Shown in pieces: positions 33,998 to 63,972 of a stretch of 63,972 nucleotides of DNA. The position numbers were made by a program, and so were the translations under genes. Source of the stretch: Alphaproteobacteria bacterium (lineage in GTDB: Bacteria > Pseudomonadota > Alphaproteobacteria > UBA9219); contig JARLJD010000021.1 in the NCBI GenBank assembly GCA_031291395.1, forward strand, positions 1 to 63,972, read 5' to 3'. Position 1 is the first letter of the stretch, and each line of letters begins with the position of its first letter. The notes beneath the pieces are model-generated. The model was not told the origin of the DNA. It saw nothing but the letters and a program-made list of their open reading frames with translations, and did no database searches.

Positions 33998-34171
33998 GGC
34001 AGCCTCCTCCTTTGAAAGGAACAGTCTAACAGTCTAATTGATACACAAGTCTATGTCAAAATCGAGGCGCCGACAAACCAGAACGCTAACCAATTTACTG
34101 GACACACGAAAGGGGCGTTTGTTATACAAACCTGCGGTTTCTAGGCACCCTCTATTTTAAGGAGCAATTCA

Positions 34172-34813
34172 ATGAGCGAAACATCTGACAATCAAACCCC
34201 CACAGTATCTCAAGAATTTGATGTGGCAAAAGCCATAGCTGCCCTACCCGCAGAAGGTCAGGTCGCGTTGTTTCAAGACTCCGTCCAGCAGAGGAAGCCT
34301 TCGGCTCTGAAGCTTATCCTAGCTTCTGCGTCTATTGATCCTGAGCAGTTAGCGACTGCATTTCTCCCTGCGGTTAGGCATGGCCATCTCGACATAGTAA
34401 GCGCGATGCTTCCTTATGTCGATGTGAATTTTCACGACAAGCTTAATGGCTATACTCCGCTGATGTCGGCGGCGATGCAACCCCAGACGGAGTGTGTGGA
34501 CTTGCTTTTGGCGAGTCCGAATATTGACATAAATGCCACAACCACACCCGACAGCCACATTACTGTGGCAATACTGCTTGAGCCATATAGAGATTCTGAA
34601 CATCCGGCATTGAAAGAACTTTCAGACATTGCAGACAAGATATTTAAGGATCCTCGTTTTGATGCAACGGCACATGACGCGCACAATAAGGCATTGAAAG
34701 AAATTGAATCGCAAAAGAATGAGAGATGGAAGCAGGTTACGGCTAGAGATGAAGAGAGACGTAAAGTGGTTCAAGATCTCGTAGCGCCCGTAAAAAGCGC
34801 GCTCGGGTTGTGA
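34172..34813 (+). CDS. Ankyrin-repeat protein in a compositionally AT-richer segment
   Basis: At least two ANK-like units (AVRHGHLDIVSAMLPYVDVNFHD; NGYTPLMSAAMQPQTECVDLLLASPNIDINA). A strong SD (TAAGGAG) lies 7 nt upstream of the ATG. Codons are biased to A/T endings, unlike the neighbours. Confidence 0.65.
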   Translation: MSETSDNQTPTVSQEFDVAKAIAALPAEGQVALFQDSVQQRKPSALKLILASASIDPEQLATAFLPAVRHGHLDIVSAMLPYVDVNFHDKLNGYTPLMSAAMQPQTECVDLLLASPNIDINATTTPDSHITVAILLEPYRDSEHPALKELSDIADKIFKDPRFDATAHDAHNKALKEIESQKNERWKQVTARDEERRKVVQDLVAPVKSALGL

Positions 34814-34852
34814 CGTTTTACTTGGGGCGACTAAGAAATCGTGGACATTTTA

Positions 34853-36403
34853 TTAAGGGAAAATCATCCGGAAAAACTGCCCCATAATATCCCCCGCGCC
34901 GTCCGTCGAATGGCTGTTTTCTAGGCTTTTGGCCATTTGTTTGCCAAGTTCGACCCCCGGCTGGTCGAAAGCGTTGATGTCCCAGATGACGCTCTGGACG
35001 AAGGTTTTGTGTTCATATAAAGCCAGCAGCATCCCTAGACGGTACGGGTCGAGCTTGTCGAGCAGGATCAAGTTCGAGGGGCGGCCTCCGGCGTAAACAT
35101 CCTGCGGCTTTGCCGCCTGCTTGCGCCCCAAAGCAAGCGCCCCCATTTGCGCCGCCATATTCGACAGCAAGGCGCGGTGATGATCGGGCTGGTTCAGGTC
35201 GTCTGTGGCCACGCCGATGAAATCGGCGGGGATGATGTCGGTGCCTTGATGCAGGCATTGATGGAAACTGTGCTGGCTGATCGTGCCGCAATCGCCGAAG
35301 AGAACCGGCGCGGTCGCGTAACCTGTGGCCTCGCCGCCGCGCGTGACGGACTTGCCGTTGCTTTCCATCTCTAGCTGCTGCAAATAGCGCGGCAGATCGC
35401 GCAATCTTTCGCAGTAGGGCAAAATCGCCAAAGCCGACGCGCCCAAAAAATTTCGGTTCCAGATGCCGAGCAAAGCCAAAACAACCGGCATGTTGGAGAC
35501 CAGCGGCGCGGTTTGGAAATGCGCGTCCATAGAAGCTGCGCCCGCCAGCAGGGCGCGAAAATTGTCGTTGCCTATGGCCAAACCCACGCTTAGCCCGACG
35601 GCGGACCAGAGGCTATAGCGTCCTCCCACCCAGTCCCACATCGGGAACATGTTCTCGGCGTGAATGCCAAAGGCTTCGACCGCGTCGCGGTTGACGGAAA
35701 CGGCGACGAAGTGCCGCTCGACCGCGCCTTCGCCCAATTTTTCCACCAGCCAGCGCCGCGCGGAATGGGCGTTGAGCAGCGTCTCTTGCGTCGTGAAGGT
35801 TTTGGAAACGACGACGAACAAAGTCTGCGCCGGATCGACTTTCCTCAGAACGTCCGCAATGTCGAAAGCGTCGGCGTTGGCGACAAAATGCGTTTCAAAG
35901 CCTGACGCGTAAGGCTGCAGCGCCTTGGCCGCCAGACGCGGGCCCAGATCAGAGCCGCCGATTCCGATATTGACGATTGCGCGAAAAGGCTTGCCGGTCG
36001 CTCCTGTCCATTTTCCCGTGCGCACATCGTCGACAAAAGCCGAGATGCGGTTTTGCGCGGCGCGCACTTCCGGCATGACATCAATCGCGTCGAGAAAAAC
36101 CGGCGCGTCGTCAAGGCGGCGCAGAGCGGTATGCAAGGCGGCGCGGTTTTCGGTCGCGTTGATTTTGTCGCCCTTGAACATGCGCGCGCGCCAGTCGGGG
36201 ACTTGTTGCTGCGCGGCCAAGGCGACGAGAAGCGGCAAAGTCTCGGCGCTCACGTTCTGAAACGCGTAGTTCAGGCGCAAGCCGTCGAAAGCGATGTCGA
36301 AAGTCTTGAGTCGCGCAACATCGTCGAACGCGACTCTTGTTTGGCGTAGGGAATCGCGATGCCGAAGCAAGGCTTGCCAAGCGGGGGAGGAAGTCAGCGT
36401 CAT
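34853..36403 (-). CDS. pgi: Glucose-6-phosphate isomerase
   Basis: 516 aa with IGIGGSDLGP, VSKTFTTQETL, the GGRYSLWSAVG signature and QHSFHQ. Confidence 0.93.
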   Translation of the reverse strand: MTLTSSPAWQALLRHRDSLRQTRVAFDDVARLKTFDIAFDGLRLNYAFQNVSAETLPLLVALAAQQQVPDWRARMFKGDKINATENRAALHTALRRLDDAPVFLDAIDVMPEVRAAQNRISAFVDDVRTGKWTGATGKPFRAIVNIGIGGSDLGPRLAAKALQPYASGFETHFVANADAFDIADVLRKVDPAQTLFVVVSKTFTTQETLLNAHSARRWLVEKLGEGAVERHFVAVSVNRDAVEAFGIHAENMFPMWDWVGGRYSLWSAVGLSVGLAIGNDNFRALLAGAASMDAHFQTAPLVSNMPVVLALLGIWNRNFLGASALAILPYCERLRDLPRYLQQLEMESNGKSVTRGGEATGYATAPVLFGDCGTISQHSFHQCLHQGTDIIPADFIGVATDDLNQPDHHRALLSNMAAQMGALALGRKQAAKPQDVYAGGRPSNLILLDKLDPYRLGMLLALYEHKTFVQSVIWDINAFDQPGVELGKQMAKSLENSHSTDGAGDIMGQFFRMIFP

Positions 36404-44104: not shown

Positions 44105-45433
44105 TCAGGAACGTTCCGGCAGGGTAGCCAGAACCTTCAAGCCTAACATGCGCTCGACGCTCTCGGCCGAGATAAGCGTCTGGCGAAACACCAGCGCATA
44201 AACAAGGATTGCCCCCGAACCCAGCGTTCCCAAAATCATGCCCACCAGCGCATACAGCAAACGGCGCGGCTTGGTTGGAATGGTCGAGGCGTTGGGTTTC
44301 TCGAACACGTCGACGCTGACAAACTTCTGGCGATCCAGTTGTTCATTGGTCATGGCTTGCTCATAGCTTGCGCGGCTGGTGCGCACGAGACCATCGAGCG
44401 TATCATGCTCGCGTTCCAGCGACTCTAGTGTGCGGGCTACCTCTTCCATCGATTTCTGGCGGGCATCCATATTGTCGAGCGTTGCTTTTTGCAAAGCGAT
44501 TTGCTGGTCGAGAGCCGAGGCATCGGCCTGAGCCGTCTGCAACTTCAAAACGGCATCGTCGTAAACAGGGTCGACATAGGCCGGATCCTGCTTCTTCCAG
44601 TCATGAACGGTCGCCACGCTCAGCTTCTTTTCGCCTGTGCCGCTTTCTTCCTTAATCGAAAAAGGACTGAGTTCCTTGAGCCGTTGCGTATAGAAATCCT
44701 CACGACCATGCTGATCCAGCGCGCGGGTTTCAAGGGAACGCAAGGTCTCTGCCACAACAGAACGATCCTGAATTAACTGCGCGCGTTGCGCGGCGACGTC
44801 GTAAATCTTCTGCGACTGGCGCAACGCGGTAATCCTCTTCGTCACAGCGTCCAATTGATCCTGATAATCCTTGGTTTTCTGCTCAAGAAATTCGGGACGG
44901 TTGTCGCTGTACAAAGTTGTGTGTTTTTCCTGATAGATTTGCAGCAGGTCATTCAGCGCTTCGATCGCCACGTCGCGGTTTTGATTCAAAAAGCTTACTG
45001 TGATCACTTCCGACATCATAGCGGTATCTGTTTTCAGCGCCTTTTTGAACTGTTGAATGGCCTCGTCGATCGGGCGCGGGCCGGATGCGCCTTGATTGGC
45101 GAGCGCGGGGTAAAGCTTGTTCAAACCAACGCGACCGATGGTCTCCTCGATTAGGTCGTTGCTGGACAGGATTTCCAGTTCCGAATTCATGATTTCCTGT
45201 TTGGTGAGGTACGGCTCGACCGCAGCGGATTGGCCGGGGTCGGGACGGCTTTGGAATTCGCGGCCGCTTTTAATCAAAAGCTCGGCATTCGCTTCATATT
45301 TCGGCGGCGACAGGAAAGACAGCCCCAGCACAAGCGCAAACAAACCAAAAAAGGTAATGAGCACAATGCGATGCTCTTTGAAAACAATACTCAAAAATTC
45401 ACGCTTCTTAAGTGGGGATGTGTACATAGCCAA
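44105..45433 (-). CDS. Polysaccharide chain-length determinant (Wzz/PCP family, no kinase domain)
   Basis: N-terminal Wzz motif (TM then PKYEANAELLIK), a long coiled-coil periplasmic region and a C-terminal TM (LLYALVGMILGTLGSGAILVYALVF). Confidence 0.75.
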   Translation of the reverse strand: MAMYTSPLKKREFLSIVFKEHRIVLITFFGLFALVLGLSFLSPPKYEANAELLIKSGREFQSRPDPGQSAAVEPYLTKQEIMNSELEILSSNDLIEETIGRVGLNKLYPALANQGASGPRPIDEAIQQFKKALKTDTAMMSEVITVSFLNQNRDVAIEALNDLLQIYQEKHTTLYSDNRPEFLEQKTKDYQDQLDAVTKRITALRQSQKIYDVAAQRAQLIQDRSVVAETLRSLETRALDQHGREDFYTQRLKELSPFSIKEESGTGEKKLSVATVHDWKKQDPAYVDPVYDDAVLKLQTAQADASALDQQIALQKATLDNMDARQKSMEEVARTLESLEREHDTLDGLVRTSRASYEQAMTNEQLDRQKFVSVDVFEKPNASTIPTKPRRLLYALVGMILGTLGSGAILVYALVFRQTLISAESVERMLGLKVLATLPERS

Positions 45434-45498
45434 AGTCCAAATTATTAAATGTCAACGAATTACGCAATAAAACCATAATTTACCGCCTAGTGCCAGCA

Positions 45499-45524
45499 AA
45501 ATAAATACTTGCAAGTATTTATTT
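45499..45524. promoter_or_regulatory. Perfect 26-bp palindrome in the divergent promoter region of the polysaccharide locus
   Basis: AAATAAATACTTG|CAAGTATTTATTT lies in the AT-rich gap between the Wzz-like (-) and WecB/TagA-like (+) genes. Confidence 0.4.
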
Positions 45525-45637
45525 CCATAGCTTGTACGCGCCATACGCTGGTATTGTAATAACGGTCGCTTTTATATTCATATGAGCTTCTGTCCGGTGG
45601 CTATATCCTGATTATAACAGGGGAATTTTTATAAAAT

Positions 45638-46384
45638 ATGAGCCTTGATAAAAAGATCATCTTAGGAATCCCGACTCTCTCGGTGACGACTGGCGAAGGC
45701 ATCCGTCTGCTTAACCAGAAAGTGCAGGAAGGCCAAAAAACTATGGTCGGTTTCCTGAATGCGCACACGGCGTTCATTGCGGCTAAAAGCAAAGATGTTT
45801 CCTCTGTTTTACAAAGATTCACCATCTTCAATGATGGCCTTGGCATCGATATCGCAAGTTGGTTGAAATACGGCACCGCCTTTTCCGATAATTTGAACGG
45901 CACGGATTTCACGCCGCTTTACCTTGCCAAATCAACCAACCGCTTCCGTATTTTTTTGTTGGGAGCCCGCGCCGAAGTGGTCGAGAAAGCCGCGCAATAT
46001 CTGACCGAAACCTATCCGCAGCATCGAGTGGTCGGTTTTTGCGATGGTTATTCGCATTGCGACGAAACGCTGCCGGAGCGTATCCGCCATACGGAAGCCG
46101 ACCTTATTCTCGTCGCTATGGGCAATCCTCTGCAGGAATTATGGGTGGCAGAAAATTTTGAGAAAACCGACGCCGTCATGGCGATGTGTGTCGGCGCCTT
46201 GTTCGATTTCTTTGCCGGACGCATGCCGCGCGCGCCGCGGTTGCTGCAAAGGCTGCGGTGCGAATGGCTGTTCCGCCTGTGTTGCGAGCCGCGGCGTTTG
46301 TGGGGACGCTACACCGCCGAGAGTCTGCTCTTTCTTCTCTATGCGCTTTGGGACGGCGTCAAATACCGGCTTTTGCACCGCTGA
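45638..46384 (+). CDS. WecB/TagA/CpsF-family glycosyltransferase
   Basis: NAHT, NDGLGID, IFLLGA, LILVAMGNPLQELW, VGALFDFFAG..PRAP and WLFRL..EPRRLW are the family motifs. Confidence 0.85.
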   Translation: MSLDKKIILGIPTLSVTTGEGIRLLNQKVQEGQKTMVGFLNAHTAFIAAKSKDVSSVLQRFTIFNDGLGIDIASWLKYGTAFSDNLNGTDFTPLYLAKSTNRFRIFLLGARAEVVEKAAQYLTETYPQHRVVGFCDGYSHCDETLPERIRHTEADLILVAMGNPLQELWVAENFEKTDAVMAMCVGALFDFFAGRMPRAPRLLQRLRCEWLFRLCCEPRRLWGRYTAESLLFLLYALWDGVKYRLLHR

Positions 46385-46407: not shown

Positions 46408-47508
46408 CTAAATGCCGATCGATCGATAGGCTTTCGCGACGCCTGCCGCCATTATGTAATCAGAATAGAAATCGCGTTGGCGCGCATGGCAGCGCTCTGC
46501 CCATGCGCGCATATCAATGTTGCCCGTGATGACGGTGGCGAGCGCATGAGTTAGCGCAGGGATATCGCCTGCCGGGACGACGGCTTCGGCAGCGACAGGC
46601 TCCAGAACTTCTGGAATGCCCTCAACCCTTGTGCCGATAACCGGCAGGCCGGACGCCATCGCCTCAATCATGACCATCGGCAGTCCTTCGCCACACAGGC
46701 TTGGCACCACCAGCATATCCATTGCCGCAAATTCTGCCTTCATGTCGCTCGCGAAGCCAGTCCAGTCGATGGCTTCGTTCAGCCCCAACCGATCGGCCTG
46801 CGTTTTGACCTGATGTTCATAGACGGGGTCTTCGAATTTTCCGACTGCGCGCAACCGTGTCCCCAAGCCTTGATGGCGCAGATTGGCGAGCGCTTGCAGA
46901 AGGATTTCGATGCCTTTACGCGGACGGAACAGGGCGGCAATTCCTAACGTCCAAATGCCTCGCGGCGGTTGCCATGTGCAGACGTCGCTGACGACAGGAA
47001 CGCCGTTCGGAACCAAAGCAACCTTGTGTTCGGGATGCCCCGACTCCAGCAATTTGTTTTGCAGGCTTTGCGATACGGCAATCAGTTTCTGGGCACGCTT
47101 AACGCAGGAATGCTCGACCTGAGCATTGACGATATTGCGTATGATGCCGGAGGTATCCTGAGATGCCGGGCTGTGGATGTGACAGATGACAGGGCGCTTG
47201 GTCAGTCGCGCCGCCAAACGCCCTGCCAGCGCCGATCGCGGCGTATGCGTATGGATGGCGTCATATCGTCCGGCCTCGATTAAGGCGGCAAGACGTCTGC
47301 CGATGCTTATGTCCATGCGCGATCCCATCGGCACGATCTCCAGCGGCGTTGCGCGGTTGTGGCGCTTTGCGGAAAAAGCCCCCTCCTTCAGGCAGGCGAA
47401 ACCGAGATCGTAGCCGAGTTCAGGCAATCGTGCGGCGAGCAAATCCTGCACACGCTCGGCTCCGGCGTAGAATTCTCCGTTGATAATATGCAGAATCTTT
47501 GCGGCCAT
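46408..47508 (-). CDS. Glycosyltransferase family 4 (GT-B)
   Basis: N-terminal AAKILHIINGEFYAGAERV and the C-terminal EX7E region VVPSLCGEGLPMVMIEAMASGLPVIGT. Confidence 0.85.
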   Translation of the reverse strand: MAAKILHIINGEFYAGAERVQDLLAARLPELGYDLGFACLKEGAFSAKRHNRATPLEIVPMGSRMDISIGRRLAALIEAGRYDAIHTHTPRSALAGRLAARLTKRPVICHIHSPASQDTSGIIRNIVNAQVEHSCVKRAQKLIAVSQSLQNKLLESGHPEHKVALVPNGVPVVSDVCTWQPPRGIWTLGIAALFRPRKGIEILLQALANLRHQGLGTRLRAVGKFEDPVYEHQVKTQADRLGLNEAIDWTGFASDMKAEFAAMDMLVVPSLCGEGLPMVMIEAMASGLPVIGTRVEGIPEVLEPVAAEAVVPAGDIPALTHALATVITGNIDMRAWAERCHARQRDFYSDYIMAAGVAKAYRSIGI

Positions 47509-47526: not shown

Positions 47527-49113
47527 CTAGAATGCGTGTTCGCGTTTTAAAAGCGTCGGCACCGTTTTAAGCATGATGACGATGTCTAGCCACAGGCTCC
47601 AATTGCGCGCGTACCACGCTTCGAGATTGACGCGTTCCTTAAACGTCAGATGATTGCGTCCGCTGACCTGCCACGGGCCGGTGATGCCGGGACGCACGGA
47701 TTCATAGAAGCTGAAATCATCGGCATAAAGACTTTCCTGTCCCGGCATGCAGGGGCGCGGGCCGACGAGGCTCATATCGCCTTTCAGTACGTTGATCAGC
47801 TGCGGCAATTCGTCGATGCTCGTGCGGCGGATAAAGTGGCCAAACGGCGTCACGCGCACATCGTTTTTCAGCTTCTGATACTTATTCCATTCTTCGGCCG
47901 CGTCAGGATTTTCTTGCAGATAGCGATCTAGAACCTGCTCGGCGTCGGCGCGCATCGAACGGAATTTATAGCATTTAAAGAAGCGTCCGTTCTGCCCGAC
48001 CCGCTCTTGATTGAAGAAAGCCGTGCCGCCGTCGCGGCGAACGGCAAGGGCAACGATGACAAAAAGCGGCGACAGAACAAGCAGCGCCATGCCCGCCAGA
48101 ACGATATCGACCAAACGCTTGATGAAGCGCGGCAAAGGAAGTTTTAACCTGTTGGTGTCGTGCAACATCATGACGTCCTGCATCATAAAGTGATGCGGCG
48201 TGAGCGTGCTGGAGGGCAGTCCCTGCCACGGCGGAATAATTGAGCACGGAACGCGCGCGCGCGGGAGGGATTTCAGCGCGGCCTGATAGCGTTCGATCTC
48301 ACTGCCTTCGAGCGCCAGAAAAATATAATGCGCATCCTGCAGCATCAAAACCTGTTTCCATGCGCTGGTTTTCGTCATGTCCGACAGGACAGTCGGCGGC
48401 AAAATATCGACGATTGCAAAGCCGACGTGACGGTCGCGCGACAAGGCTCTCAGTGCGGCTTCAGCTGTCGGCCCTTCGCCGATAATGATGGCGGGAATGC
48501 GCCACGCCCCAGTTCTTTCCAATCGAGAGCGAACGAAGCTGCGTCCCGCCAAGGAGAAGAAGGCGAAAAGCATCCAGCCGAAAGCGACCCACAGGCGCGA
48601 ACTATTGCTGCGCGCCGCAAATTCAATAAATCCGCTGGCAACAAAACCGACGCTTGCGACGCCAAGGATATTGCCCACCGATTCCCAATAAGGCAGACGC
48701 TGGCGGTAATGACCGCGGCTATCGAGCCACAAAATCGCGGAAAGGCTAATCGTCCAGAAAACAAAGTCTTGTTGCAGCGTAACAAAGCTGAATAAATCCT
48801 GAGAGGGGCCAGCATCCATTAACTCATGCCACGCCCATACAAAGGCCGCTCCGCCGAAAAAAGAAAGAACCAAAGCAAAAACATCCGCGGTCAGAAGCCA
48901 AAGACCCGTCGCGCGCATGCGGCTGGCAAAATCCGGAAAGCTCTGAGGCGCTGTCGATACGCCGCTTCGTAACCCCGCGCGTTTTTTATAAGCGGGTTGA
49001 ATTCTGGCGGCAACAGAAGCCGTGTCAGCATAAATTTGAAGCATAAAATTACAAAATGCAGGTTTAAAATATTTGCCGAAAACGGATGAGGGTACCCATT
49101 CGTTTGTGTACAA
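47527..49113 (-). CDS. Undecaprenyl-phosphate sugar phosphotransferase (WbaP/ExoY-like priming transferase)
   Basis: N-terminal TM block and C-terminal bacterial sugar transferase domain ([42 protein letters not shown]). The exact start is uncertain. Confidence 0.85.
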
Positions 49114-49248
49114 GAGTATAGTTTATTATGGCGAAACTAAATATCTTATTTTAACGGCGCGCAACTTCAAATTTTCGCCGCTTCGATTAATGAAAACAAA
49201 CACCGAATAACTAATTGATAAACATACAAATAATGCAATGCCTGTCAG

Positions 49249-50208
49249 CTATTTGCTTGCCGGAGGGCTGAAAAAATCCATTGTTCGTAACAGCCTTCGC
49301 ATGGCCTTATCCAAAACCATTGTCGGGGAAAACATCATGCGTTTGCCGTCAACAAGGCATTTGTCGCCCCATGCCGACAGGTGGTGGAAGCCGTGAGGGT
49401 TCTTTCCATGCGCGGGTTGTATTTGGGTTGCCTCTTCTTCCCGGAAGGATTCAATCGAGCACTCTGTGATGCGCATAATGCGAAGCGCGCCGCCGTAGCG
49501 TTTGGTGCAATCCTGCGCGGGGCGATAAAGTTTCCCATCCTTACGAAAGGGCGTTCCCCCGCAACGTGAGTGCTGAAGCCCGCGTATGACGGGATTGGCT
49601 GCGTGCGGACGCCACGACCCTGTAAGGCTTGAGGCATAAATCAAATTAAGGTTATCCCAAGCGCCAAGGTTCGCATCGGTATAGGCGATCCAGAAATATC
49701 CGCCTTCTTCAAAAATAACGCTGTCTGCCGCGGCAACGCCTGATAAAGGCGTGGCAATCTTTTTCCAGCGCTGCTCTGTCTCTTTCCAACAGAAAATGGA
49801 AAGTTCCTGTGCGGCGGCGGATTCCGGCATGGCGTAGACTTCGCCTTCATGCATAAACAGGAAAGGAAAGGAAAGGTGACAGGAAAATGAGAAATTTTGC
49901 TCAGCTTCAGAGATAATGCGCCCGTTTTTAATCCCGAGCCTGTGGATGGAGCCAACAGAGGTGGCAAAGTCATAATTTTCACACAAGATAATATCGGAGC
50001 GCCCGGGCCAAGGAAAGGGATCGGCCAGATACCGCACTTTGAATCTCGAAGACAACCACCGGACAGGAGGGCACACCGTCCAATCAAGCGCATTGGCAAT
50101 CGGCTGATCGACGATGCCGATCATCCAGTTTTCGTGTAGAAAGATCGCAACGAGTTTAAGCCATAGCTGTTTGATGAAGATTTTCACACGAAGCCCCTTA
50201 GGGAACAA
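49249..50208 (-). CDS. Hypothetical protein at the edge of the polysaccharide locus
   Basis: 319 aa containing YLADPFPW and a beta-propeller-like repetitive aromatic pattern. Assignment is not secure. Confidence 0.4.
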   Translation of the reverse strand: MFPKGLRVKIFIKQLWLKLVAIFLHENWMIGIVDQPIANALDWTVCPPVRWLSSRFKVRYLADPFPWPGRSDIILCENYDFATSVGSIHRLGIKNGRIISEAEQNFSFSCHLSFPFLFMHEGEVYAMPESAAAQELSIFCWKETEQRWKKIATPLSGVAAADSVIFEEGGYFWIAYTDANLGAWDNLNLIYASSLTGSWRPHAANPVIRGLQHSRCGGTPFRKDGKLYRPAQDCTKRYGGALRIMRITECSIESFREEEATQIQPAHGKNPHGFHHLSAWGDKCLVDGKRMMFSPTMVLDKAMRRLLRTMDFFSPPASK

Positions 50209-59893: not shown

Positions 59894-60070
59894 GCGGCGG
59901 AATCCCCTCCCCCTCGCGGGGAGGGTTAGGGAGGGGGGAGAGAGGCTTGGAAAGGCGATTGGGGGTTATAAATAACATTGCGACAAGGTTTGTTTACAAC
60001 CCTGAACTTGGTCTTTTGCGTCACTCCCCCCTCCCTAACCCTCCCCGCGAGGGGGAGAGGATTCTATCGC
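59894..60070. repeat. Family C compound repeat, copy C9 (about 180 nt)
   Basis: The left end is GCGGCGGAATCCCCTCCCCCTCGCGGGGAGGGTTAGGGAGGGGGGAG. The right end is CTCCCCCCTCCCTAACCCTCCCCGCGAGGGGGAGAGGATTCTATCGC. Confidence 0.85.
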
Positions 60071-60175
60071 TTTTGCGGCACTGCTGTTTTTGACTCGCAA
60101 AAACGTGTTCTCTTTCCTTTACGCCAACCTCCCCTTCCTTTTGTCTACAATCCCTTTATACGAAAAAGGGCAAAC

Positions 60176-60538
60176 ATGCGGCTCGATACTCACGACAACA
60201 CTTCTCAAGACTATCGTCGCGCGCGCGAGATGAGGAACATCGCATCGCCTGTGGAAAATAAACTTTGGGTTGTTTTAAGAGAAGCGGCGAAAGCATCGGG
60301 ACTAAAATTCAGAAGGCAACAAGCCGTTCATCCCTTCATCGCCGCTTTTGCATGCATGAAGGCAAGATTGCTCGTGGAACAGGACGGAGATTCCCATGCG
60401 AACAGCGAAAGTTACGATCGATCGCGAGATAAAAAATTGAAGGAAATGGGATTTGTCGTTCTAAGATTTGCTAATGACGATGTTGTGCAAAACGCCGAGG
60501 GCGTAGCAATGGAAATCGTTCATCAAGCTGGCCGTTTG
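60176..60538 (+). CDS. DUF559 (Vsr-like endonuclease fold) domain, with no stop codon before the next domain
   Basis: ARxxR...ENKLWVVLR....GLKFRRQQAVHPFIAAFAC.....LLVEQDGDSH......DR.RD..L...GFVVLRFANDDV matches the DUF559 pattern from memory. The frame continues uninterrupted into the PagL-like part. Confidence 0.55.
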
Positions 60539-61132
60539 GTGAAGGAAAACAAACGGAAATTATTACCGAAAGCTCTCCTTGCTCTCGCCCTTTTCGGCGT
60601 CCTATCCCCCCTGCCCGCCGCCGCCGCGGCCACGCCCGATTATCTCTCCTTTGGCCTCGGCGCGTATGATTTCGACAAGGGCGACGCGGACAGAAAATCC
60701 GTCGATTACCGGCTTGAATACGAAAGCGGCGTTTCGCTGCTGCCGTTGATCACGAAAAGTTTCAACAGCGTCGAACCGTTCCTTCAGGCGCATCCGACGC
60801 TCGGCTTTGAAGGCAATACGCATGGGGCGATCTATGCCAACGGTGGGATTAATTTCGATATCCCCTTCCTTCGCCACGGCATTTTTACTTGGGGCGAAGC
60901 GGCGGGCGCGTTCGCGCGCGGGAACGATGCGCGATCCGTGGGATCAGTTCTGGAATTTCGCTCGCAACTTGAATTGGGCTGGCGTTTCGATAACGACTTG
61001 CGCATGACCGGCTTTATCAGCCATATCTCGAACGCGCATCTGGTCGATAACAATCCGGGCGCGGAAATTGCCGGAATTTATCTGCATGTCCCCTTAACTT
61101 TGCTGGCGCAAAAAAATGAGTCCTCTCCCTAA
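60539..61132 (+). CDS. Lipid A 3-O-deacylase / acyloxyacyl hydrolase family protein (PagL-like)
   Basis: A possible GTG start is followed by a signal-peptide-like KRKLLPKALLALALFGVLSPLPAAAA. The C-terminal GFISHISNAHL..NPG motif is typical of the PagL family. It is in the same frame as the DUF559 part. Confidence 0.55.
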   Translation: MKENKRKLLPKALLALALFGVLSPLPAAAAATPDYLSFGLGAYDFDKGDADRKSVDYRLEYESGVSLLPLITKSFNSVEPFLQAHPTLGFEGNTHGAIYANGGINFDIPFLRHGIFTWGEAAGAFARGNDARSVGSVLEFRSQLELGWRFDNDLRMTGFISHISNAHLVDNNPGAEIAGIYLHVPLTLLAQKNESSP

Positions 61133-61934
61133 ACTCGGCATCATCGCAGGCGGCGGAGCGGCACCGACGCGCGTGATCGAAGCTTGCCGCGCGCAAGGCC
61201 GCGCGTTTTTCGTCGTTTGCCTTGAAGGTCAGGCGGATCAGGCCACGGCATGTGATGTGCCGCACGCGTGGCTGTCCTTGGGCGCGTTCGGCAAATTGCG
61301 CGATCTGGCGAAAGCCGAGAATATCGTCGAGATCGTCATGATCGGCCGTGTGCGGCGTCCTTCCCTGCGCGAGCTGAAGCCCGACTGGCTGGCGGTGAAG
61401 GCCTTGGCCAAAATCGGCATGCATCTGCTCGGCGACGACGCCCTTTTGCGCGCCGTGGGGCAAGCGATCGAGCAGGAATGCGGCGTGCGCGTGATCGCAG
61501 CGCAGGATATTCTGGGCGGCGTCTTGATGCGCGAGGGCATTCTCGGCGCTGTTTCTCCCGACGCGCAGGCGCGGCAGGACATCGCGCGAGGCGTCAAAGT
61601 CGCTAGACTGTTGGGAGAAGCCGATGTCGGCCAATCGGTCATCGTGCAACAAGGCCTCGTTCTGGGCGTCGAAGCGATCGAAGGAACGGACGCCCTGATC
61701 GCCCGATGCAAGGATTTACGGCGCGACGGCGCGGGCGGCGTTTTGGTCAAACTGGCCAAGCCGCAGCAAGACGACCGTTACGATCTGCCCACGATCGGCC
61801 CCGACACCCTAACTGCAGCGGCGCAAGCGGGGCTGCGCGGGATAGCCGCCGAAACCGACCGCAGCCTGTTGATCGACCGCGACCGCGTCCGGCAGTTGGC
61901 GGATGAAAAAGGGATTTTTGTTATCGGAATCTAA
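61116..61934 (+). CDS. lpxI: UDP-2,3-diacylglucosamine pyrophosphatase LpxI (DUF1009)
   Basis: LGIIAGGG..P, VMIGRVRRP, DVGQSVIVQQGLVLGVEAIEGTDALI, KPQQDDRYDLPTIGPDT. Confidence 0.85.
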   Translation: MSPLPKLGIIAGGGAAPTRVIEACRAQGRAFFVVCLEGQADQATACDVPHAWLSLGAFGKLRDLAKAENIVEIVMIGRVRRPSLRELKPDWLAVKALAKIGMHLLGDDALLRAVGQAIEQECGVRVIAAQDILGGVLMREGILGAVSPDAQARQDIARGVKVARLLGEADVGQSVIVQQGLVLGVEAIEGTDALIARCKDLRRDGAGGVLVKLAKPQQDDRYDLPTIGPDTLTAAAQAGLRGIAAETDRSLLIDRDRVRQLADEKGIFVIGI

Positions 61935-62031
61935 AAAATGGACGAAAGTATATTAACACCTCTTTGGGGTTGAATTTTGCCTATAGTATTGTATGAAGAC
62001 TAAAGAGGTTAACATTTTAAGGAGACACATT

Positions 62032-62391
62032 GTGTCCAAACTTTTGAATAGGCAGTCGGGAGGAATTCCAGCCGATATGCCAACGGAATTTATCGTGGAC
62101 TTATTAGGGAAAGCCATTAAGGAGTGGGGAAATCGTGATGCTCTTGCGTATATTACCCAACAACTAACTCCACTGGTAACAGAACATCCTGTAATTGCTC
62201 AACCCTTGAGAGCTATGGCAGAGGAGGTGGCTGGTACTGCCCTTTGTACTGCTTGGAATGCAGGATTCGCTGCCGCCAAAACGCTAGCTAGTAATACGGA
62301 GTACTACACCGCTGGTGCTTTGGCTAATCCCCAGAAACCTTTAGAGCGGGCAGTGGCGGCATTTTTGCAAAAACACCAACCTTCAGCGTAA
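62032..62391 (+). CDS. Hypothetical small protein in an AT-richer junction upstream of dotL/icmO
   Basis: The track ORF starts at 61993 (ATG). The in-frame GTG at 62032 has a strong SD (AAGGAG) 7 nt upstream. Codon usage is A/T-ending, unlike the flanking genes. I recognise no motif and no TM segment. Confidence 0.45.
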   Translation: MSKLLNRQSGGIPADMPTEFIVDLLGKAIKEWGNRDALAYITQQLTPLVTEHPVIAQPLRAMAEEVAGTALCTAWNAGFAAAKTLASNTEYYTAGALANPQKPLERAVAAFLQKHQPSA

Positions 62392-62696
62392 TCGAAAATC
62401 CGGGCAGCCGTATACATCCCCGCGTAATGGTTATCTAGAAAATAGGGAATACGTCTGCGCCATAGAGGCGCAGCGCAATTCTCTCAATCAAGAAGATTTA
62501 CCTTGATTCCCGATTTTATTGCCACAAAATTAACCAAAAACTAACGTTAAACGGTCATGACTTATTGATTACTTTCGGGTAGACTTCGCTTCGCGATTAC
62601 TGTGGGCTGCACCTTATCTGATTTCCCTTTAAGGCGCAGGGGACACCGGACGAACCCGATTAATCCGGATCGATAGAAAAACTAGGGCGAACGACG

Positions 62697-63972
62697 ATGC
62701 CTATTATTCTACCTAAACATCAAGCGACGCAGCGCGACATCTTGCGCGATGTGCGCCCCGTGTCCGTGCGCCTCGCCGCCTATATGTCGACCGGCACCAT
62801 TATCACGGCAATGGCATTCGGCTCGATCGCCTTTCTGTTTGCGGGGCCACCGACGCTTCGCGCTTTGGCCGACATTATAGCAGTGCCTTTGTATTTCTAT
62901 TTCCGCTGGGCTTTGCGCACACCCTTCTCGTTGCCTTTCAAGCTTCCGCGCTACGCCAATATGAAGGATCCCCATAATCCTCCGCCCGGCAAAGGCGGCA
63001 GCGGCAAATCCGACGGCATTTTGTATTTGGGCAACGTGTCAGACAAGGACGACGATAACTTTGGCCGCGAGGTTTGGCTGACCAATATCGACGCGCGCAC
63101 GCATATCCTTTATCTCGGCACCACGGGTTCGGGGAAAACCGAAGGGCTGAAATCTTTGGTAACCAATGCCTTGGCGTGGGGTTCCGGCTTTTCCTACACC
63201 GACGGCAAGGCCGACACCGATTTGTGGGCTTCGCTTTATTCGGTCACACGCCGGTTCGGGCGTGACGACGATATTCTGGTTTTGAACTACATGACCGGAA
63301 ACTCCGACGACGGATCGACGTCCAATTCGATGAATCCGTTCTCGAACGGTTCGGCCTCGTATCTCGCCAACCTCGTCGTCAATTTGATGCCGGATGCGGG
63401 CGGCGACAACGCGATGTGGAAAGAACGCGCCGTCGCCTTGATGTTCGCTTTGATGCCTGCGCTGACTTACAAGCGCGACAAGCAGGGCATGCTGCTCGAC
63501 GTCGGCGTCGTGCGCGATCATTTGGAGTTGCAGCCTATCATTCGCCTGTCGCGCGACCAGACGTTGCCCGCGCGGATCGTGCATGGGCTTGAAGGTTATT
63601 TGAACACGCTGCCGGGCTTTGTCGCCGCGGCGTTCGACGACGACGGCAACGAACGTCCGCCCTCGCCCGACCAGCCGATGTATGATTTGCAAGTCGCGCG
63701 TCAACAGCACGGCTATCTGTCGATGCAGTTCACGCGTTCGATGCAGTCTTTGGCCGACGAATACGGCTATATCTTCAAGGCGCAATTGGCCGACATCGAC
63801 GTGCTGGACGTGGTGCTGAACCGCCGCATTCTGGTGGTGCTGATTCCGGCTTTGGAAAAGTCCGGCGACGAGGCGGCGAACTTGGGTAAAATCGTGGCCT
63901 CGTGCCTGAAGGGCATGATGGGCGCGACGTTGGGCAATACCGTCGAAGGCGGTTGGGAGAACGCGGTCGGCA
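62697..63972 (+). CDS. icmO: Type IVB secretion coupling protein DotL/IcmO (5' partial; runs off the window)
   Basis: This frame is open from ATG 62697 (in-frame TAA at 62661) to the window end and is absent from the ORF track because it has no stop. My own translation gives N-terminal TM segments, GILYLGN, EVWLTN, Walker A ILYLGTTGSGKTE, ALAWGSGFSYTDGKAD, DDILVLNYMTG, NSMNPFS and AMWKERA. From memory this is collinear with Legionella IcmO. Confidence 0.85.
   Translation, partial: MPIILPKHQATQRDILRDVRPVSVRLAAYMSTGTIITAMAFGSIAFLFAGPPTLRALADIIAVPLYFYFRWALRTPFSLPFKLPRYANMKDPHNPPPGKGGSGKSDGILYLGNVSDKDDDNFGREVWLTNIDARTHILYLGTTGSGKTEGLKSLVTNALAWGSGFSYTDGKADTDLWASLYSVTRRFGRDDDILVLNYMTGNSDDGSTSNSMNPFSNGSASYLANLVVNLMPDAGGDNAMWKERAVALMFALMPALTYKRDKQGMLLDVGVVRDHLELQPIIRLSRDQTLPARIVHGLEGYLNTLPGFVAAAFDDDGNERPPSPDQPMYDLQVARQQHGYLSMQFTRSMQSLADEYGYIFKAQLADIDVLDVVLNRRILVVLIPALEKSGDEAANLGKIVASCLKGMMGATLGNTVEGGWENAVG

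Follow-up and report, generated by a model that had tools for sequence, protein, structure and literature searches.

A coupling-protein gene at the end of the window

The window analysed here, by which we mean the whole 63,972-nt stretch of contig JARLJD010000021.1, carries the genes of an ordinary chromosome (fumC, glnA, radA, RNase R, sucC, pgi, gyrB, recA and a polysaccharide cluster) and ends inside a gene for a DotL/IcmO-family type IVB coupling protein (T4CP), here called icmO. The gene occupies the last 1.3 kb, where bases 62697–63972 (+) are stop-free for 425 codons from an ATG to the final window base, and its ATGCC start is invariant across 13 orthologous loci. It is cut by the window end, its orthologs being ~785–820 aa long. 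The predicted product begins with a membrane-anchor region (approximately residues 30–75; 62784–62921, +) that aligns to the N-terminal transmembrane (TM) region of DotL and includes one strongly hydrophobic segment (Kyte-Doolittle 19-residue windows >1.5 at starts 30–35) and a second, weaker one at about residues 56–74, judged by eye from the sequence. A Walker A P-loop, LGTTGSGKTE (residues 140–149; 63114–63143, +), aligns to FGSTGSGKTE of DotL, and further motifs are present at residues 161 (WGSGF), 169 (DGKAD), 195 (VLNYMTG), 212 (MNPF) and 239 (AMWKERA).

A phmmer search against all PDB chains returned a single match, Legionella pneumophila IcmO (DotL; 6sz9_A, E = 2.8e-86), with residues 7–422 of the fragment and 8–420 of the chain forming one collinear stretch. 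The best curated family is the NCBIfam model of IncI-type TrbC, NF041447 (TrbC_conju; E = 1.7e-80), with a score of 271 bits against a cut-off of 800 for a fragment that is half the protein and a model built on IncI TrbC. IncI-type TrbC is the conjugative homologue of DotL. Matches in Pfam were weak and limited to TrwB_AAD_bind and T4SS-DNA_transf (TrwB/VirD4 type). In a full-length ortholog (L003, 816 aa), residues 7–599 align to residues 8–592 of DotL (E = 9e-132) with Walker B included; this motif (FDEVGYY) lies past the window end and was seen both in that ortholog and in P0087, a sequence that shares 98% identity with the fragment where the two overlap and that provides the probable C-terminal half of the window's IcmO. 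The preliminary description, made from the letters of the window alone, had recognised the N-terminal 425 aa of a DotL/IcmO protein at the window edge and had listed its TM region, Walker A and conserved blocks. All of these motifs were recovered, with the hydrophobic segment starting at about residue 30, and the matches to NF041447 and to DotL in the PDB support the homology; judged by its sequence, the gene is a genuine member of the DotL/IcmO family.

Relatives, gene contexts and descent

Across 5.8 billion proteins, hundreds of relatives of the fragment were detected, nearly all from uncultured Alphaproteobacteria, 'Rhodospirillaceae' or Micavibrio, and the sources often already label these relatives IcmO. 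A scan of one genome per species (GTDB) yielded 333 stretches with a gene for a relative. The top 80 all belong to a Micavibrio-related alphaproteobacterial group, save one bin labelled Patescibacteria (L079) and a few labelled only 'proteobacterium', and among them is the complete Micavibrio aeruginosavorus HCB189 chromosome; some metagenome-assembled genomes (MAGs) carry the label 'Bdellovibrionales' because NCBI places Micavibrio in that order. The best identity to the window's IcmO among the species representatives is 88%. The scan thus bears out the alphaproteobacterial backbone proposed for the window and narrows the host to a Micavibrio-related organism. Open reading frames (ORFs) were called on all loci and clustered, and the conserved neighbour families were annotated, which separated two gene contexts.

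In the first context, icmO (59–76% identical to the window) is part of an operon with the usual order dotG-dotF-(traQ-like)-dotN-dotO-dotM-F2-icmO. Its components include a TrbI-like DotG C-terminus, a weak IcmG/DotF, two TraQ-like membrane proteins, IcmJ/DotN (NF038221, 2e-26), DotM/IcmP (NF033890, 2e-48; PF23127, 2e-43) and a Walker A protein of ~1000 aa that is named IcmB (DotO) by NCBI and JGI. The latter has no matches in PDB, Pfam or NCBIfam, and its identity as DotO/IcmB would follow from the source names, its size, the Walker A motif and its operon position. In several of these loci, icmO is followed by a GT4 glycosyltransferase, Wzy_C, unnamed genes, an SLT-like and a thioredoxin-like gene, DotD and DotC, the last two being recognised in some operon-type loci (PF16816, 3e-20, and PF16932, 3e-74, respectively). 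Adjacency of icmO to dotM holds in most relatives outside the second context, and in M. aeruginosavorus HCB189 (L064; NZ_CP195303.1, 729–21958) dotM-F2-icmO adjoins argS and gyrB.

Two features of the operon-type loci recur. A gene of ~180 aa, F2 (with a variant, F58), always stands between dotM and icmO (e.g., L020, 9287–9859, and L066, 448–1002, with about 40 other loci); its product carries a hydrophobic segment towards the C-terminus and matches nothing in Pfam or NCBIfam, and from its position and sequence F2 is a candidate lineage-specific subunit of the coupling complex. In many of the loci, GT4 and the O-antigen-ligase-like Wzy_C lie directly downstream of icmO (L020, 12458–14688; L001, L002, L036 and L048), and in L001 and L020 they separate icmO from the block that runs from SLT to dotD (dotD-dotC in L020). 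A homologue of this GT4 occurs in the window at 46408–47508 (−), 15 kb upstream and within the polysaccharide cluster. Overall, icmO is recurrently found near envelope-glycan genes, the counterpart in the window being lpxI and pagL.

The second context is that of the window and its closest relatives, a subclade of about 20 species-level genomes with IcmO 78–88% identical to that of the window. The gene order is suf genes, pepN, (pagL), lpxI, icmO, followed by secF, a SIMPL-like gene or both; several loci also show galE and clpS further along. In these approximately 20 loci, the 10 kb to each side of icmO are free of Dot/Icm genes. The neighbourhood had been described beforehand as non-canonical, with icmO away from icmP; the missing icmP adjacency stands, while the arrangement is not peculiar to this contig, the lpxI-icmO linkage being a conserved, derived state of the whole subclade. 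Two MAGs, JAYRGC01 (L028/L033) and CAIPYM01 (L035/L042), possess two icmO paralogs each, which form sister pairs (bootstrap 93 and 100) with all four genes in non-operon contexts. These pairs suggest a lineage-specific duplication of the solitary icmO, or possibly redundancy within the bins.

A neighbour-joining tree of the IcmO N-terminal region (60 bootstraps) was built with L. pneumophila DotL, the TrbC proteins of IncI1 and IncL/M, and plasmid coupling proteins of Bosea, Xanthomonas, Acinetobacter and Pseudomonas syringae as references. The alphaproteobacterial IcmO proteins form one clade (bootstrap 100), within which those of the lpxI/secF context group together (bootstrap 100) in a subclade that branches from among dotM-linked lineages; the solitary icmO is therefore a derived relocation. 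The IncI1 and IncL/M TrbC proteins fall outside the alphaproteobacterial clade, and the window gene does not group with them. The branching order of DotL, the Bosea protein and the alphaproteobacterial clade is poorly supported (bootstrap 43–58 for Bosea relative to DotL). Identity to the window is 39.5% for DotL, 46% for the protein of Bosea plasmid pBSY19_1, 43% for the Xanthomonas plasmid protein and ~29–37% for IncI1/IncL-M TrbC. Because the Bosea protein is closer than Legionella DotL, 'DotL/TrbC (MPF_I) family' is a safer name for the gene than 'Legionella-type'.

The divergence of icmO keeps step with that of the host. M. aeruginosavorus is 63% identical to the window in GyrB and 61–62% in IcmO, and the corresponding values for L039 are 76% and 71%, a pattern that points to vertical inheritance. 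Within the subclade, IcmO (82–88%) exceeds PepN (70–81%), LpxI (64–83%) and SufS (71–85%) in conservation. The gene is under purifying selection, with Nei-Gojobori dN/dS ratios against 16 orthologs of 0.07–0.15, values that are approximate, dS being ~1 and near saturation. The composition of icmO (GC 0.58; GC at third codon positions, GC3, 0.75) is native to the host genome (window GC 0.555; GC3 of 0.73 for lpxI and 0.69 for pepN). The earlier suggestion that the gene has the GC-rich composition of the core genome and was not recently acquired agrees with these values and with the parallel divergence of GyrB.

Partner genes, promoter region and neighbours

Upstream of icmO the window has lpxI and an ORF of 132 aa in place of dotM, and no match to the DotM hidden Markov model (HMM). 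A partner gene was found in a second genome of the subclade. With DotO of the nearest operon-type relative as query, a match (P0157) was retrieved on JAMFSS010000009.1 (GCA_026225415.1), a 321-kb contig that also carries a subclade icmO (L009). This icmB is solitary, lies between a phaR-like gene and lysS (L089, 10001–12994; about 150.5–153.5 kb on the contig) about 63 kb from icmO, is intact at 997 aa and is 77% identical to the icmB of the operon-type loci L001 and L020. In Legionella the Dot/Icm genes are grouped in two or three blocks, whereas in this genome they are probably dispersed singly. A search for IcmP/DotM yielded no match on the JAMFSS01 contig, and further lookups led to operon-type loci or to operons that lack icmO. 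Two other loci (L090 and L092) retain dotG...dotO-dotM-F2 with no icmO after it; they were considered as the dotM loci of the subclade and could not be so assigned, the DotO of L090, the one open to comparison, not being especially close to that of the subclade.

L097, the closest strain, is 88% identical to the window in DNA where the two overlap; in it, secF follows icmO directly, and near-identical C-terminal fragments with 0.85–3.5 kb of downstream sequence hold no Dot/Icm genes, the genes there being secF (L097) and others including a class II aminoacyl-tRNA synthetase (L098). Since secF follows icmO in L097 and icmB is solitary and ~63 kb away, the rest of the system is most likely dispersed on the chromosome rather than located immediately past the window end. 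The preliminary description had placed the remaining genes, if present, beyond the window; none was detected inside the 64 kb, in agreement with it, and an immediate continuation downstream is improbable.

Alignment of 13 orthologous upstream regions revealed a conserved 24-mer, ATTAACCAAAAACTAACGTTAAAC (62529–62552, +), with TTAAC/TAAC half-sites 11 bp apart, approximately 145 bp upstream of the icmO start. Allowing up to 4 mismatches, all 17 matches in 1.34 Mb of loci lie upstream of a subclade icmO, and the window has 1 match versus 0.01 expected. The element is a candidate site for a regulator that acts on the relocated gene. Just downstream, conserved columns of the alignment outline a candidate sigma-70-like promoter, ATGACT-17 nt-TAGACT (62557–62585, +; subclade consensus AAGACT ... 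TAAACT); a consensus promoter scan did not flag this pair, which matches at just 8/12 positions. A regulon shared by icmO and icmB was also considered and is unsupported because ATTAACCAAAAACTAACGTTAAAC is missing upstream of the solitary icmB, the motif occurring only upstream of icmO orthologs. It thus appears to mark the relocated gene's own promoter region, with no demonstrable regulon.

The other genes near icmO match the earlier description of a pagL-like gene, lpxI and a small foreign-looking ORF, with additional detail. The LpxI gene lies at 61116–61934 (PF06230, 7e-46; PF17930, 2e-31), with pepN, suf genes and trxB further upstream, and the same gene order was recovered on three independently assembled short contigs (≤3 kb; exact-LpxI lookup). 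The lpxI-icmO spacer is 762 bp in the window and 110–270 bp in relatives (563 bp in one). Most of this enlarged spacer is filled by the 132-aa ORF (61993–62391, +; GC3 0.40), which has no Pfam or NCBIfam match and no counterpart in ~90 related loci. The ORF was found on three independent short contigs (runs SRR23300977, SRR23300978 and SRR23300986; 119 aa on one) and looks like a recent lineage-specific insertion. The ORF at 59978–61132 (+) joins a DUF559 domain (Vsr-like endonuclease fold; residues 80–182) to a PagL lipid A deacylase domain (residues 304–371), and the two domains are also joined in a 318-aa product predicted independently on a Logan contig. In relatives, a gene of ~185–240 aa encodes PagL only, and the frame in the window may be a fusion or an in-frame remnant. 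An island bounded by a tRNA or repeats was rejected for the icmO junction, as 8.8 kb separate it from the nearest tRNA (Gly), which lies upstream, and no flanking tRNA, repeat or integration mark is seen there. Elsewhere in the window, the 1-kb bins 34001–35000, 45001–46000 and 49001–50000 have a GC of 0.47–0.48 (window mean, 0.555), the latter two being inside the polysaccharide-biosynthesis cluster (Wzz, WecG, a sugar transferase and a GINT1-like gene).

Function, alternatives and known systems

The fragment is, with good probability, the coupling-protein gene of a chromosomal and vertically inherited Dot/Icm-like type IVB secretion system (T4BSS) in a Micavibrio-related alphaproteobacterium. 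By homology, IcmO would be an inner-membrane-anchored hexameric ATPase that docks, together with DotM and DotN, on a channel energised by DotO/DotB, where it would pick substrates and feed them into the channel; the substrates would be proteins rather than DNA. The subclade icmO has moved from an ancestral dotO-dotM-F2-icmO operon to its site between lpxI and secF, apparently with a conserved promoter region of its own, and the partner genes would be located at other chromosomal sites, some of them at least standing alone like icmO.

Several observations weigh against this interpretation. HMMs of 17 neighbour families (15 from operon-type loci) detected no other Dot/Icm gene in the 64-kb window, with none at E ≤ 1, and DotM, DotB, DotA, DotH and IcmS/IcmW were not located in any subclade genome, no whole-genome search for adaptors having been made. 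The presence of the machine in the organism of the window rests on one related genome, that with icmB (GCA_026225415.1). The last ~215 residues of the protein, as seen in L003, are not similar in sequence to the tail with which DotL binds its adaptors, and by this comparison the tail is lineage-specific. A distant relaxase elsewhere in the genome is possible, the finding of no relaxase or integrase applying to the 30 window ORFs and to the neighbour families and flanks of relatives that were scanned. To these are added the near-saturated dS behind the selection estimate and the fact that no effector or substrate of the system is known.

An alternative that differs in the target of the system, not in the identity of the gene, and that overlaps with the coupling-protein interpretation, is an effector injector in the style of Legionella aimed at eukaryotic hosts (protists), with the bacteria being intracellular or protist-associated and not predators. 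All characterised non-conjugative T4BSSs target eukaryotic cells according to reviews, Needham et al. read the secretion system that they term pT4SSi as a marker of host association, and most genomes of the clade are uncultured, with no established lifestyle. M. aeruginosavorus (L064, with dotM-F2-icmO), the clade's one cultured species, is instead an obligate epibiotic predator of bacteria, and no IcmS/IcmW-type adaptor was recognised among the conserved neighbour families scanned, the genomes themselves not having been searched for adaptors. A eukaryotic target is possible, though not what we would expect.

The Dot/Icm-like genes of M. aeruginosavorus raise the question of whether an epibiotic predator uses the machine on its prey. 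The genome paper on strain ARL-13 from 2011 reported no type IV secretion system; reviews place non-conjugative T4BSSs in the Legionellales and allied Gammaproteobacteria (PMC8896642, PMC11338181); and Needham et al. in 2022 gave one sentence to pT4SSi identified with MacSyFinder in seven marine Micavibrionales (PMC9418006). Full-text literature searches found nothing further on a Dot/Icm-like system in the Micavibrio lineage. It is conceivable, if rather unlikely, that the system is an ancestral organelle with which epibiotic Micavibrio-related predators inject effectors into bacterial prey and the genes of which have become scattered in the subclade. Were this true, it would be the first bacteria-targeting T4BSS, the scattering of single genes among housekeeping genes would be something that a mobile element could not tolerate, and the 2011 statement would have hidden a central part of the mechanism of Micavibrio predation.

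What is already known comprises the protein family, the automated IcmO names and pT4SSi in Micavibrionales, and for the window itself the result is the correct annotation of a known protein family. More broadly, a non-conjugative T4BSS, usually regarded as a hallmark of the Legionellales and related intracellular Gammaproteobacteria, appears here as a chromosomal and vertically inherited system in at least 80 species-level alphaproteobacterial genomes, and with icmO and icmB as solitary genes, detectors that rely on clustering can overlook such systems or rate them incomplete.

IcmO could also be an orphan, a coupling ATPase that outlasted a lost secretion system and is now either in decay or recruited to a membrane function of another kind. 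Such an orphan would fit the lack of any partner gene in the 62.7 kb upstream and, across about 20 orthologous loci, in the 10 kb to each side of icmO, as well as icmB being the sole partner shown in a genome of the same subclade. Decay or co-option is nonetheless improbable given the low dN/dS and an IcmO identity within the subclade above that of neighbouring housekeeping proteins, orthologs that are full length with Walker A and B intact, the retention of an intact icmB still close to those of the operon-type loci, and the conserved promoter-like region upstream of icmO. A conjugative role for IcmO, as the coupling protein with which an IncI-like integrative and conjugative element (ICE) or an integrated plasmid transfers DNA from one bacterium to another, would suit the best curated match (NF041447), the weak Pfam matches, the typing of 3363 of the 4031 plasmid records with a homolog as conjugative and the ICE-like islands carrying mobA/L in the Micavibrio genome paper, yet it is highly improbable, as the TrbC proteins are distant and outside the alphaproteobacterial clade, the GC3 is native and divergence follows GyrB, a single icmO wedged between housekeeping genes (lpxI and secF) in about 20 species cannot belong to a contiguous mobile element, and the junction shows neither a relaxase or integrase nor a flanking tRNA or repeat, with no relaxase or integrase found among the window ORFs and the flank genes of relatives (pheST, flgKL, addA, yifB, gyrB and argS) scanned for relaxase and integrase.

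The coupling protein of the window resembles Legionella DotL (PDB 6sz9, 7ovb) in that the TM region and the entire nucleotide-binding domain align collinearly and the Walker A and B motifs correspond, and in most relatives icmO adjoins dotM and is near dotN and dotO, as in Legionella. It differs in the overall identity of just 39.5% and in a tail dissimilar to the part of DotL that binds DotN, IcmSW and LvgA. Further, the operon-type relatives have the ~180-aa F2 gene between dotM and icmO, icmO is unlinked from dotM in the subclade of the window, and the host is alphaproteobacterial and not a member of the Legionellales. TrbC of IncI1 (R64-type) and IncL/M plasmids shares the protein family and the domain order; unlike the plasmid arrangement trbA-trbB-trbC-nikB with its NikB relaxase, icmO of the window is chromosomal and single, with housekeeping genes flanking it in ~20 loci.

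Outside the clade, the closest plasmid-borne relative is WP_069052540.1 of Bosea sp. RAC05, encoded on the 709-kb secondary replicon pBSY19_1 (L083, 306063–308864) and 46% identical over 433 residues. The protein (933 aa) is also alphaproteobacterial and likewise does not adjoin a recognisable relaxase, its gene being near hypothetical genes, a toprim-domain protein and a prepilin peptidase. The plasmid, the record of which holds three matching places, is typed 'non-mobilizable' and may carry another uncharacterised alphaproteobacterial T4BSS.

The pT4SSi of the seven marine Micavibrionales is Dot/Icm-like and has no relaxase, none having been found among the ORFs scanned here either, and it and the system considered here very likely represent one system within one broad lineage. 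The single sentence of that report gives no gene order or coupling-protein analysis, and the lpxI-icmO-secF arrangement and the dispersal of icmB do not appear there. A further comparison is with the bacteria-killing VirB/D4 systems of Xanthomonas, Lysobacter and Stenotrophomonas, which are of class IVA, not IVB; XVIPCD-type effectors are not in evidence here. These systems deliver toxic effectors, chosen by a coupling protein of the VirD4 family, in a contact-dependent manner, and they could represent a functional analogue if the Micavibrio-lineage system were to target bacterial prey.

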